Virus record (IMG/VR): IMGVR_UViG_2529292904_000023
Length of the DNA: 27,930 nt
Strand: one strand, 5' to 3'
Source: a virus
Lineage: Duplodnaviria; Heunggongvirae; Uroviricota; Caudoviricetes
Shown here: positions 10,954-21,645 of the stretch, one piece after another
How the letters are laid out: each line of letters starts with the position of its first letter
Numbering within the stretch: position 1 is the stretch's first letter
The notes under the pieces: model-generated
The model's input: the letters and a program-made list of their open reading frames with translations, nothing else
Database searches by the model: none
What the model was told of the DNA's origin: nothing
Translations under genes and position numbers: made by a program

Positions 10954-11549
10954 ACAGTTTAACGGCAAATAACCGTTTGTCGCAACAGCTGGTGGTCAGC
11001 GTCGCTGAACACCTGTTGTTACGGCATGAATGCAGATTACCAAATCACCTGGCTGTAAGTAACCACAGAGAACTTTACCTGACTGTGGGGGGCGAGTTGT
11101 GCAGGAACTTAACCGCTGGTTTCGTGACGGAAGAGGGCTTTATGTCCATGTTATTCGTTGGGAGCCAGAAACACAGCGCGTTATCTATCTTCGCAAAGAC
11201 TACCCGCATGAGTGCTTTAGTCCTTTGTGGAAATTCAGGCGTGATTTTGTTGAGTGTGAAGGACCACCAGCATATTGATTCTGCAATTCCGGGACGTTAC
11301 ACTGCTCAGGCACCTTATAAAGCGGGTGCCGGGATTGGCGTCCTGAAATTCGCACATGCGCATAACCGCGCTTCAGCGGTTTTTTTGCGCACGTTTCCTC
11401 ACATCCAAATTATGGTGGGGCGTGCAGGGGCATCGAAAGATGCGCCGGGGTCATGTGCGACCGGTTACGCCAACCCTGTACGTCTCACCACCTCTGTGAT
11501 TGGCGTCCCATGTGGTGAGTTTTCAAAATTCGCACATGAGGATGTCACT

Positions 11550-16832: not shown

Positions 16833-17585
16833 ATGAACCTTGAAGCCTTACCGAAATATTACTCCCCGAAATCTCCAAAACTGAGCGATGACGCACCGGC
16901 GACAGGCTCTGGTGGTTTAACAATTACGGATGTGATGGCTGCGCAGGGGATGGTGCAGTCAAAAGCACCGCTTGGGTTTGCTTTATTCCTGGCAAAAGTT
17001 GGTGTTCAGGATCCTCAGTTTGCGATTGAAGGTCTGCTCAATTACGCGATGGCACTGGATAACCCGACATTGAATAAATTGAGTGAAGAAACCCGGCTAC
17101 AGATCATTCCTTACCTTGTGAATTTTGCCTTTGCTGATTATTCCAGGTCTGCGGCAAGTAAGGCTCGCTGTGAGCATTGTGCTGGTACTGGATTTCATAA
17201 TGTATTGCGCGAGGTGGTGAAACACTCCAGAAGCGGGGAATCTGTTATTAAGGAAGAGTGGGTGAAGGAACTATGTCAGCATTGTCATGGTAAGGGAGAA
17301 GTCAGCACAGCATGCAGAGGGTGCAAGGGTAAAGGTATTGTCCTGGATGAAAAAAGAACCCGGCTTCATGGCACACCTGTTTATAAGGTTTGTGGGCGTT
17401 GCAATGGAAACCGGTTTAGCAGTTTACCAACCACACTGGCGCGGCTTCATGTCCAGAAGCTGGTACCAGACCTGACGGATTATCAGTGGTACAAAGGATA
17501 TGCAGATGTCATTGATAAACTGGTTACAAAGTGCTGGCAGGAAGAAGCATATGCAGAGATACAATTGAGAAAGGTGACAAGATAA
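16833..17585 (+). CDS. Q: Late-gene antiterminator Q (phage 82 / QuuQ-like type)
   Basis: 250 aa directly upstream of the pR'/tR' candidate and the tRNA island; four Cys-x2-Cys pairs (CEHC, CQHC, CRGC, CGRC); GGAGA Shine-Dalgarno. Confidence 0.6.
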   Translation: MNLEALPKYYSPKSPKLSDDAPATGSGGLTITDVMAAQGMVQSKAPLGFALFLAKVGVQDPQFAIEGLLNYAMALDNPTLNKLSEETRLQIIPYLVNFAFADYSRSAASKARCEHCAGTGFHNVLREVVKHSRSGESVIKEEWVKELCQHCHGKGEVSTACRGCKGKGIVLDEKRTRLHGTPVYKVCGRCNGNRFSSLPTTLARLHVQKLVPDLTDYQWYKGYADVIDKLVTKCWQEEAYAEIQLRKVTR

Positions 17586-17616
17586 ATGGTTTTCGCCGAA
17601 GATGACGACATGATGC

Positions 17617-17645
17617 TTGCATTTTTCAAAAAATATGGATAAGAT
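17617..17645 (+). promoter_or_regulatory. Candidate late promoter pR' (-35 TTGCAT, 17-bp spacer, -10 TAAGAT)
   Basis: Located just 3' of Q and about 50 nt upstream of a strong terminator, as in lambdoid pR'/tR'. Confidence 0.4.
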
Positions 17646-17691
17646 TTTCCCAACGATGGGCTTTGTATGTCTACCGTTGATAAGATTTAAG

Positions 17692-17717
17692 AACCCGCCG
17701 ATGCGCGGGTTTTTTTG
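17692..17717 (+). terminator. tR'-like rho-independent terminator
   Basis: CCCGC-cgatgc-GCGGG followed by TTTTTTT. Confidence 0.65.
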
Positions 17718-17896
17718 TACCCAGAATCCTGTGAGCTATACGGAAAGTACACAGAAAGGAAGGTGCGACCACAATTAATAACAAAATCTTAAAAATTGCA
17801 CATGGCACTATTAGTTTTCTAAATATTGTGTATTTTTTGTATTGCAGGATGACCCTGTAACGAAGTTTGCGTAACAGCATTTTGCTCTACGAGTTT

Positions 17897-17926
17897 GCCA
17901 GCCTCCCCCAGTGGCTGGCTTTTTTA
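17897..17926 (+). terminator. Second rho-independent terminator
   Basis: GCCAGCC-loop-GGCTGGC followed by TTTTTTAT. Confidence 0.6.
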
Positions 17927-17948
17927 TGTCTGTAGCGTCAAAGCAGCA

Positions 17949-18047
17949 ATGTCGCTGGGGCGTCGTGCAATTGGCGTTGAGCTGGAGACTGAACGTTTTG
18001 AGCAGACGGTCAGGGAAGTTCAGGATTTAGTCAGTCAGAACGGATGA
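17949..18047 (+). pseudogene. 3'-terminal remnant of a DNA methyltransferase gene (last ~33 codons)
   Basis: Reading frame gives ...SVKAAMSLGRRAIGVELETERFEQTVREVQDLVSQNG-stop, resembling the C-terminal motif region of beta-class N6/N4 methyltransferases; upstream part replaced by the terminator. Confidence 0.4.
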
Positions 18048-18087
18048 TATTGCAGGATTAGTTACGTACCGTTATTATCCTGCGCCC

Positions 18088-18163
18088 GGCCCTTTAGCTC
18101 AGTGGTGAGAGCGAGCGACTCATAATCGCCAGGTCGCTGGTTCAAATCCAGCAAGGGCCACCA
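18088..18163 (+). tRNA. tRNA with CAU anticodon (Ile2/Met type, ileZ-like)
   Basis: Cloverleaf folded by hand: 7-bp acceptor stem, GCTC/GAGC D-stem, anticodon loop CTCATAA, T-loop TTCAAAT, encoded CCA. Confidence 0.85.
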
Positions 18164-18172
18164 TATCACATA

Positions 18173-18249
18173 CCGCCATTAGCTCATCGGGATAGAGCGT
18201 CAGCCTTCGAAGCTGGCTGTGCGGGGTTCAAGTCCCCGATGGCGGTCCA
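18173..18249 (+). tRNA. tRNA-Arg (anticodon UCG)
   Basis: Acceptor CCGCCAT/ATGGCGG, anticodon loop CTTCGAA, T-arm CGGGG-TTCAAGT-CCCCG, encoded CCA. Confidence 0.8.
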
Positions 18250-18262
18250 TTATCAGCATCAT

Positions 18263-18339
18263 GCGTTGTTAGCTCAGCCGGACAGAGCAATTGCCTTCTA
18301 AGCAATCGGTCACTGGTTCGAATCCAGTACAACGCGCCA
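18263..18339 (+). tRNA. tRNA-Arg (anticodon UCU)
   Basis: Acceptor GCGTTGT/ACAACGC, anticodon loop CTTCTAA, T-loop TTCGAAT, encoded CCA. Confidence 0.85.
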
Positions 18340-18626
18340 CACCACACTTATCTGCCCTGACTCTCTTTTGCGGGCTTTTTATTACAGGAAAGACACCGGA
18401 CAGTGAAATGTTAAATGCCTCACAATTCAGGTAGTCGACTGTTGCCTGACATGCTGAGCGTTTGTTAAAAAAATCCTGCATGATGAATCCCCCTGGGCGG
18501 CGGGGCATAATGACAGATGTTTGGTTGCGTATTGTATAGGCAAGTTGCGGATTCTGTCTGGTCATTGCAGAATTCACCGGGAGGCACCCGGCATCATGCT
18601 GTATACAGAGATTAGGCATATATCCA

Positions 18627-18652
18627 GGCTCCTCATCGCAGGAGCCTTTTTA
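18627..18652 (+). terminator. Rho-independent terminator
   Basis: GGCTCCT-catcgc-AGGAGCC followed by TTTTT. Confidence 0.6.
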
Positions 18653-18656
18653 CATG

Positions 18657-18682
18657 CAAAAAAAGCCCGAGTAGGTTCGGGC
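18657..18682 (-). terminator. Convergent minus-strand terminator
   Basis: A-run then GCCCGA-gtaggt-TCGGGC; reads as hairpin plus T-run on the minus strand. Confidence 0.5.
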
Positions 18683-18864
18683 AACAGCATGAGATACTTG
18701 CATTGTCATTTTTATCGTGTGGATTTTAACCAGGGTTTATCAGGCTGCGCAACTGCGTGGCCTTTTTTCATTTCTTGGGCTGTAGTCCCCGTGTGTCATT
18801 CAGGCTTCCGGACTACAGCCCACTCCATATCTGATTTAATACACTATCCCGGCCGGGAGGAATA

Positions 18865-20868: not shown

Positions 20869-21084
20869 ATGTACCAGATGGAAAAAATCACAACAGGTGT
20901 GTCATACACCACGTCAGCGGTGGGAACGGGCTACTGGTTCCTGCAGTTGCTGGACAGGGTTTCCCCGTCTCAGTGGGCGGCAATAGGCGTGCTGGGAAGT
21001 CTGCTGTTTGGGCTGCTGACATATCTGACTAACCTGTATTTCAAAATCAGAGAGGACCGGCGTAAGGCCGCCCGGGGAGAGTGA
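20869..21084 (+). CDS. S: Phage-21-type class II holin (pinholin) with a dual start
   Basis: 71 aa, MYQMEKITT... with Met1/Met4 dual-start motif; two TM segments; C-terminal [14 protein letters not shown]; GGGAGA Shine-Dalgarno. Confidence 0.85.
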
Positions 21085-21087
21085 ATA

Positions 21088-21645
21088 ATGAACCATGAAG
21101 AAATGAATCAGCGCTTCAGTCGCCTGGAAAATGAAATTGCTGAACTGAATAAAAAACTGTCGACGCTGATGCATTCTGAAGATGAAAAAAAACGCCGCGA
21201 TGAGCAGTTTGCTGCGTTTGACGATTATTGTCGGAAAGTGATGAGCAAAAATCTCGCAGAGTGTTTCAGTATTCATAATGATAATTTCAGTGAGCTGGAA
21301 TGGGAGTGTAACCGGCCATCCTTTGTTGTATCCGGTGATGCCGGGAAAATAACCATCTCAGAAAATGGGAAAGTAACACCTCCATCGCACCAGCACAGTG
21401 AGGAGCTCATTGAATTTGCCATTGATTACCTGAAGAACAATAAAAAGCAGGGGCTGATGAAGCGCGTTGGCCGTTGCATGGGATATCTTCAGGTAGCCGC
21501 TGAGATTGAAGCGCTGGCCAGTGGTGCTGATAAGGATGCAATTGTGCGGGAGGCTCTTCTTCGTGATTTTAATACTCCACCCTTTAAAAAAGTGCCGGCT
21601 TACTGGCTTCATCCGGGGCTGACTTATCTTAAAGTGCGTATTTAG
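21088..21645 (+). CDS. Hypothetical 185-aa protein inserted between holin and endolysin
   Basis: ORF 3 nt after the holin stop; N-terminal heptad-like segment (LENEIAELNKKLSTL); no TM segment or recognised motif. Confidence 0.5.
   Translation: MNHEEMNQRFSRLENEIAELNKKLSTLMHSEDEKKRRDEQFAAFDDYCRKVMSKNLAECFSIHNDNFSELEWECNRPSFVVSGDAGKITISENGKVTPPSHQHSEELIEFAIDYLKNNKKQGLMKRVGRCMGYLQVAAEIEALASGADKDAIVREALLRDFNTPPFKKVPAYWLHPGLTYLKVRI

Follow-up and report, generated by a model that had tools for sequence, protein, structure and literature searches.

Q cassettes are defined by the promoter that lies immediately 3' of the Q gene, and the binding site of Q-lambda is the spacer of pR' (PMC9388147, from which the definition of the lambda-Q family was also taken). 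In Sakai, transcription started at pR' yields a 258-nt transcript that ends at tR' (Sy, Lan & Tree, PNAS 2020, PMC7547250). This transcript is cut by RNase E at +173, between the GU and the AUU of a GUAUU sequence, to give a stable 74-nt Hfq-binding sRNA, StxS, whose 3' end was mapped to tR' by Term-seq (PMC7547250). StxS activates rpoS and represses stx1B in Sakai and is tied to a 144-aa Q in the published survey; a primary start located between tR' and stx2 drives the tRNAs (PMC7547250). In qO111-type Stx2a phages a methylase is found between q and the tRNAs, and it is absent from q933-type phages (PMC8456039). An account of pR' regions by Zhang et al. (2018) makes no mention of a methylase or of tRNAs.

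The window (the whole 27,930-nt stretch of DNA that was analysed) was examined between its Q antiterminator gene and its three-tRNA island, at 17586-18087. This region is the late-gene switch of a lambda-like E. coli prophage. The locus is, with high probability, the late regulatory region of an stx-negative lambdoid prophage that was built from three known modules and operates as proposed below; the homologies, hairpins, breakpoints and conservation behind this reading were observed directly. Nearly every element is already annotated or published (Table 1). The tRNAs are followed by an STnc100-family RNA, AgvB, a sialate O-acetylesterase gene and lysis genes, and stx genes are absent downstream of the tRNA island in the window, which identifies the window as an stx-negative relative of Shiga-toxin phages. 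Over the 1 kb at 17400-18400, one complete E. coli chromosome matches the window at 100% identity, and chromosomes of O26, O121 and O145 STEC do so at 99.9%. Complete E. coli genomes with the entire arrangement numbered 146, and about ten viral contigs had it too; the part from Q through T2 was present in 175 complete genomes; in the phage collection, no record covered at least 80% of 17400-18400.

Table 1. Coordinates of features and modules in the window, with the basis of each assignment.
Feature	Coordinates	Strand	Basis
Q antiterminator gene, 250 aa, lambda-Q family with DnaJ-like zinc-finger insert	16833..17585	+	Pfam, Q-lambda structure chain, annotation
Putative pR': -35 TTGCAT 17617-17622, spacer 17623-17639, -10 TAAGAT 17640-17645	17617..17645	+	homology to lambda pR'
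Predicted start (about 17652) and putative sigma-dependent pause element AACGAT(GGG)	17652..17660	+	lambda analogy
T1: tR' belonging to the lambda-family Q; mosaic junction between its cassette and the 933W-type leader	17689..17716	+	folding, variants, annotation
Long StxS precursor body (933W-type leader)	17717..17840	+	identity to phage 86, Sakai Sp5, Nil3, phi296, 933W
Short StxS sRNA: 5' end equivalents 17841/17849, 3' end at the T2 T-run	17841..17925	+	published mapping, conservation
T2: tR' of 933W-type Stx phages	17897..17925	+	folding, 933W annotation, published 3' end
N6/N4 DNA methylase remnant (pseudogene), last 37 codons and stop	17934..18047	+	homology, RefSeq
pT, putative: TTGCAG-17-TATTAT, then G+C-rich CCTGCGCCC before the first tRNA	18050..18078	+	933W annotation
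tRNA island ileZ (anticodon CAT)-argN-argO	18088..18339	+	ARAGORN, Rfam, 933W and Sakai annotation
Module 1: lambda-family Q cassette (Q, pR', putative Q-binding element, pause element, T1)	16833-17716		
Module 2: 933W-type Shiga-toxin phage leader; T1 shared, StxS precursor, ends with T2	17691-17936		
Module 3: last 111 nt of the methylase gene, pT and three tRNA genes	from 17937		

The Q protein was compared with Pfam, where it matched PF03589 (E 2.5e-52) and DnaJ_CXXCXGXG (E 1.9e-8), and with the PDB Q-lambda chain 7ubm_Q, which was matched over residues 1-120 and 160-250 (E 1e-36). The annotation in Lys8385Vzw, SfV, Ayreon and RefSeq is antitermination protein Q. A PF03589 Q gene thus stands immediately 5' of the switch, as in other lambda-Q cassettes.

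T1 folds as a hairpin at 17689-17714 with a CCCGC/GCGGG core and a 6-nt loop, accompanied by seven T residues at 17710-17716. Folding energies were -14 kcal/mol for T1 (z -3.3) and -14.5 kcal/mol for T2 (z -3.4); each hairpin beat all 200 shuffles (0/200 folded as well in either case), and the intrinsic terminator expected of a Q cassette is present. None of the four elements of the region, both hairpins included, was listed by a consensus promoter/terminator pattern scan, and the hairpins were likely missed through limits of its rules, the T1 stem entering the T-run and the T2 loop exceeding 8 nt; the scan was given no weight in either direction. Variants of the cassette were collected from 80 viral contigs that carry the same Q (98-100% identical protein), giving 35 distinct versions. 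Of 12 folded representatives, 11 have a hairpin and T-run at a constant spacing from the pause element; in the exception, L059, the stem is degenerate and the T-run broken. Pairing was judged from the individual folds, the 3' arms being out of register in the MAFFT alignment because loop lengths differ. The stems seen were CCCGC/GCGGG, CCUCGC/GCGAGG, CUCGC/GCGAG, ACCGC/GCGGU and CCUCGC/GCGGGG, with compensatory changes in several variants and a freely varying loop. Directly 3' of the T-run the sequence is wholly different between lineages, and T1 carries a terminator annotation in SfV, Ayreon and 933W. The retained hairpin, the compensatory stems, the divergence past the T-run and these annotations together argue that T1 is the tR' that belongs to the cassette and marks its right-hand end.

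T1 is also where two module families meet. Similarity to phages with this Q stops at 17718, similarity to 933W-type phages starts at 17691/2, and the two families overlap in T1 only. The loop in the window is of the 933W type (CGATGC), which places the crossover in or just before the 5' arm of T1. A T1-like hairpin was also found 3' of unrelated PF06530 Q genes, in 933W-type and in qO111-type phages, and is preceded in both by the motif AAGAGTGGTTAC..TTGCCAC. Since it also follows PF06530 Q genes, the hairpin belongs natively to both cassette types and forms a linker common to them. The idea that T1 of 933W-type phages is a vestige of a lambda-family Q cassette was considered and is excluded by the T1-like hairpin after the qO111-type Q.

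T2 begins 181 nt past the T-run of T1 and consists of a stem (17897-17903/17913-17919), a 9-nt loop and six T residues at 17920-17925. Its 933W counterpart, at 20929-20957, is annotated 'possible rho-independent terminator'. A second strong terminator about 180 nt beyond the first had been proposed in the original prediction; the hairpin is real (17897-17925) but not anonymous, because its coordinates match the published mapping, in which the Term-seq 3' end of StxS is tR' and corresponds to T2 (PMC7547250). The intervening '180 nt' are accordingly the body of the StxS precursor, and StxS itself (about 85 nt, ending at T2) had been overlooked.

Over 17691-18100, phage 86 is 99.5% identical to the window, and Sakai Sp5, Nil3 and phi296 are 95% identical; 933W is 94% identical over 17691-18380. 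When the Sakai coordinates were transferred, the cut fell between 17840 and 17841, in a GUAUU at 17839-17843 and 85 nt before the 3' end at 17925; the Sakai start lies 22 nt past the Q933W stop codon, and T1 occupies about +24 to +52 of the Sakai transcript. The mapping is internally consistent, since it accommodates both the spacing of 258 nt and the site of GUAUU. Homology to StxS thus includes its 3' 74-nt part, and GUAUU stands about 85 nt before the 3' end of the terminator. A 933W-type pR' after a 144-aa Q, with which StxS is otherwise associated, was not found here, the Q being a 250-aa PF03589 protein. 933W-type homology begins only at 17691, and the StxS precursor of this locus would be chimeric, its 5' leader being a different one. 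No match was obtained in 17586-18087 at Rfam gathering thresholds, so StxS apparently lacks an Rfam family; a permissive Rfam search returned sub-threshold matches to RprA, DsrA and leader families.

T1 looks strong, yet the 258-nt Sakai precursor passes through the same hairpin. It is therefore conceivable, if somewhat unlikely, that T2 is the effective tR', with a leaky T1 and StxS made constitutively at a high level as in Sakai. T1 of Sakai Sp5 lies inside the 258-nt pR' transcript, which accumulates on RNase E inactivation, and the distal hairpin alone was named tR' by the authors who described StxS (PMC7547250). Here, however, the T1 stem is G+C-rich, is followed directly by U7 and folds at the -14 kcal/mol given above, and most phages with this Q have no terminator near pR' other than T1, which compensatory changes in the stem have maintained. 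Moreover, T1 would lie at +38 to +65 of the transcript in this locus as against +24 to +52 in Sakai, and the Sakai behaviour may not transfer.

Production of short StxS from an internal promoter of its own, independent of pR' and of read-through at T1, is improbable. Hexamers for such a promoter can be read upstream of the short form (TTGCAC-18-TAAATA at 17796-17825, and ATGGCA-16-TATTGT with its -10 at 17824-17829), but they are at chance level and their expected starts are 5-9 nt off the mapped end. In Sakai, the 5' end was recovered by RLM-RACE without pyrophosphatase and the precursor builds up in an rne-ts strain, both of which point to processing (PMC7547250).

The promoter assigned as pR', TTGCAT-17-TAAGAT, agrees with the consensus at 7/12 positions. 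Matches as good or better number 492 in the 27.9-kb window, 16 of them inside 17586-18087, and a scan requiring 9/12 did not report it; the consensus match alone is at chance level. The assignment is credible through homology to lambda pR' and its geometry, not through the consensus score. The 9-mer AACGATGGG, which occurs once in the window, stands 6 nt past the -10 hexamer with the sequence and offset seen in lambda, and it includes lambda's sigma-dependent pause element. In sequence and offset, the AACGAT(GGG) pause element expected of a lambda-Q cassette is present, and by analogy with lambda the transcription start would fall at about 17652. The 17-nt spacer, presumed to be the Q-binding element, is identical to that of lambda at 11/17 positions (own count on the alignment). 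Among 18 aligned variants, the TGG 5' of the -10 and four of the six -10 positions are invariant; the -10 forms TAAGAT, TAAAAT and TAGGAT were all seen among the 35 variants behind this Q. Across the cassette variants the pause element is near-invariant and the -35 slightly variable.

These results agree with the original prediction. It had named TTGCAT-17-TAAGAT as a sigma70-like promoter, and both hexamers are read directly at 17617-17645; it had placed this promoter about 50 nt before a strong terminator, and T1 begins 44 nt past the -10; and it had regarded the arrangement as fitting pR'/tR', which is consistent with the lambda-family Q on the 5' side, the lambda pR' layout and the retention of T1 in the folded variants. 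A chance match at this site, with the true late promoter elsewhere (for example within the 3' end of Q), is very unlikely. The 492 equal matches and the silence of the standard scan would allow for it, but position, spacing and the offset of the 9-nt pause element are identical to those of lambda, the hexamers, spacer and pause element are kept whereas the flanks vary, and Q cassettes are defined by a promoter right after Q (PMC9388147). TTGCAT-17-TAAGAT is retained as the candidate pR'.

The open frame between T2 and the tRNAs, 17934-18047, reads SVKAAMSLGRRAIGVELETERFEQTVREVQDLVSQNG followed by a stop codon. It aligned with the C-terminus of the 350-aa Ayreon methylase at 23/35 identical residues (66%, E 1e-15) and with positions 196-220 of the 221-position Pfam profile PF01555 (E 0.077). 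A tblastn search with the remnant retrieved 289 phage records, including the annotated full-length methylases of SfV, cdtI, PY54 and phiO18P. An in-frame methyltransferase relic of about 33 residues had been predicted here; the relic is confirmed as the last 37 codons of such a gene, and the methyltransferase homology whose lack was to count against it was found on search. From 17937 the DNA agrees at 158/163 nt (97%) with the 3' end of an intact 1059-bp gene in Stx2_EH2246 and with the spacer that follows it. The intact methylase of the qO111-type Stx2a phages Stx2_14744 and Stx2_EH2246 (352 aa, PF01555 E 6.8e-44) ends 40 nt before the same tRNAs, carries DPPY near residue 35 and FMGSGST at residues 309-315, and reads ...DFFMGSGSTVKAAMALGRR... 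The frame in the window starts past both motifs, the T2 module being joined to ...SVKAAMSLGRR... Catalytic motif IV (DPPY) and AdoMet-binding motif I (FMGSGST) are thus missing from the remnant, and for this reason, together with a Pfam match limited to positions 196-220 of 221 at E 0.077, it was filed as a pseudogene rather than as a PF01555 member. RefSeq flags the frame as a pseudogene, with the wording 'DNA methylase; incomplete; missing N-terminus'. Two alleles of the remnant differ by 5 nonsynonymous and 1 synonymous codon changes.

A functional small protein of 32-50 codons (from ATG 17949 or TTG 17895 to 18047) can hardly be encoded there, for although the frame is open, identical in >100 phage records and entered in several phage records as a CDS for a 'DNA modification methylase' or 'DNA methyltransferase', both motifs lay upstream of the breakpoint and are lost, ATG 17949 has no Shine-Dalgarno sequence and TTG 17895 lies inside the terminator stem, the ratio of nonsynonymous to synonymous changes is unlike purifying selection, RefSeq labels the frame a pseudogene, and the identical copies come from recent relatives.

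Lys8385Vzw, an Stx1 phage, follows the window at 99.7% identity from Q as far as 17934 and departs from it beyond that point, which makes the end of the T2 module a second recurrent joint. Nothing equivalent to the StxS/T2 segment exists in the intact-methylase phages Stx2_14744 and Stx2_EH2246, and the event was therefore a replacement of about 1.4 kb and not a simple deletion. The earlier proposal, that DNA had once been deleted or recombined between Q and the tRNAs, holds for recombination, supported by the intact gene in qO111-type phages, and not for simple deletion. A TTTTTT-ATG microhomology at the methylase breakpoint was also considered; it was ruled out by the ATGTCYGTA that follows T2 in Lys8385Vzw, and these shared bases belong to the T2 module. 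Downstream of the remnant, pT corresponds exactly to a 933W feature at 21082-21110 annotated 'pT; putative tRNA promoter', and it agrees with the start that drives the tRNAs in Sakai (PMC7547250).

The following mechanism is proposed, in which the start site, pausing, termination efficiencies, promoter activity and StxS output of this locus are modelled on lambda and Sakai. In the lysogen, RNA polymerase would initiate at pR', pause at the AACGAT element and, without Q, mostly stop at T1. Transcripts leaking past T1 would end at T2, and the leaked RNA would be cut by RNase E between the GU and AUU of GUAUU to give an Hfq-binding StxS of about 75-85 nt. On induction, Q would load on the paused complex and the polymerase would read on into the late genes, past T1, T2 and the terminators beyond them. 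The tRNAs would be driven by their own promoter, and the methylase fragment would be an inert scar of the exchange that brought in module 2.

This locus shows a precise exchange of Q cassettes of unrelated families at a shared terminator, so that StxS can sit behind another switch and in toxin-free prophages. It is tentatively suggested that exchange at T1 has freed StxS from the 144-aa Q and placed it behind a lambda-family Q and pR' in stx-negative prophages of many STEC, non-O157 as well as O157; if this holds, T1-type hairpins would serve generally as linkers for swaps of the late-gene switch among lambdoid phages. If T1 leaks as it does in Sakai, such silent prophages would add differently regulated copies of StxS that raise RpoS in the host, and the presence of this regulator of RpoS and Stx1 in toxin-free prophages affects gene dosage counts in outbreak strains. 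Toxin output in STEC is commonly read from which Q and pR' precede stx. In annotation, StxS should be the label for the stretch from T1 to T2, the short 'DNA methylase' CDS of many phage records should be given as a pseudogene, and T1 and T2 should be treated as module boundaries.

Against lambda, the layout of pR' is identical (-35, 17 nt, -10, 6 nt, AACGATGGG), Q is homologous (E 1e-36) and a 5' stem CAACG...CGUUG is present in both; Q here has an additional zinc-finger segment of about 40 aa, and the terminator lies about 40 nt from the start, compared with about 190 nt in lambda. In SfV, mEp460, Ayreon and Stx2c phages the Q-pR'-T1 block is 96-97.5% identical up to 17718. After T1 these phages have other small genes and an intact methylase of about 350 aa before the lysis genes, without the StxS/T2 segment and without a tRNA island directly after. 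In Stx2_14744 and Stx2_EH2246 the match to 17937-18087 (97% identity) takes in the last 111 nt of the methylase gene and the 40-nt spacer, and the same tRNAs follow; the first 315 methylase codons of these phages are replaced in the window by the StxS/T2 segment.

Features of 933W were taken from its GenBank record (AF125520; Plunkett et al. 1999), in which both hairpins are annotated as possible terminators. 933W and Sakai Sp5 are 94-95% identical to the window from 17691 and have the same two terminators, methylase remnant, pT and ileZ-argN-argO at matching positions. Upstream, Q and pR' are of unrelated families (PF03589 here, PF06530 in 933W) and T1 stands at about +38 here and about +24 in 933W; downstream, stx is absent after the tRNAs here. 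The StxS of this locus has a DsrA/RprA-like, seed-like stretch, CCCUGUAACGAA, seen in the sub-threshold Rfam alignments; this weak similarity fits the published rpoS seed shared with those sRNAs. It differs from published StxS in that the first ~40 nt of the precursor would come from another promoter and leader, and in that it lies behind a 250-aa lambda-family Q in an stx-negative prophage, this position being the sole departure from the literature and a minor extension of it.

Downstream of the tRNA island, 39 nt (18381-18419) were found in place of the ~1.34-kb stx2AB cassette of Stx2a phages (2942-4282 in L010, a Stx2a phage sequence with a qO111-type Q), and homology of the window to L010 picked up again on both sides. 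Judged from sequence, this is a clean stx-empty allele with the tRNA island on one side and the STnc100/AgvB/esterase region on the other. In that region, the STnc100 and AgvB matches lay back to back, flanked by the tRNAs and the esterase gene. IsrK adjoined a C4 antisense RNA in the prophage early region.

Small RNAs and reverse frame in the window
Feature	Position	Strand	Basis
IsrK	11310-11386	+	Rfam, 62.3 bits
C4 antisense RNA	11408-11495	+	Rfam, 75.1 bits
69-codon frame	17671-17880	-	spans T1 (terminator, 17689-17716) and the StxS precursor
STnc100 sRNA family	18449-18657	+	Rfam, gathering level, 175.6 bits
AgvB, anti-GcvB sRNA	18658-18717	-	Rfam, gathering level, 56.2 bits, just at threshold

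The first tRNA (18088-18163) was called Met, anticodon CAT, by ARAGORN; in 933W, Sakai and RefSeq records, the same gene is ileZ, tRNA-Ile reading AUA. The 69-codon reverse frame is listed as a hypothetical protein in one PHANOTATE-annotated phage record; given its A+T-rich composition and its overlap with known RNA elements, it is probably not a gene.

A T1-like terminator, AAACCCGC-CGCGA-GCGGGTTT with a T-run (1040-1090 in L010; 1474-1530 in the Nil3 phage sequence, L001), was also located after qO111-type Q (PF06530). Ahead of it stands AAGAGTGGTTACTTTGCCACACAG, which 933W-type phages have as well. Two unrelated Q cassettes thus end in a hairpin of one and the same type. The feature labeled tR' in the Nil3 GenBank record (1580-1648 in L001, window ~17770-17838) is an A+T-rich stretch lying between the window's two G+C-rich hairpins and matches neither of them.

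The region of StxS, a published Hfq-binding sRNA, was aligned (17813-17929) with RprA at 25.6 bits and with DsrA at 16.2 bits, both sub-threshold in Rfam. Common to these alignments were the terminator and a stretch resembling CCCUGUAACGAA, a likeness in line with the shared rpoS seed described in the literature.

At the predicted 5' end of the RNA from the late promoter pR', folding gave a stem CAACG...CGUUG (17651-17679) that takes in the pause-element sequence. The pairing was retained or improved in several cassette variants (versions of the region behind the same Q) and broken in one. A short inverted repeat, TCGCC-GAAGAT-GACGA (17593-17608), lay just past the Q stop codon, ahead of the -35, and was perfect as GGCGA in many variants. 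Both elements have counterparts in lambda, which carries an equivalent stem, CAACGA...UCGUUG, in the same position and TTGCCA-CGGA-TGGCAA where the window has the repeat.
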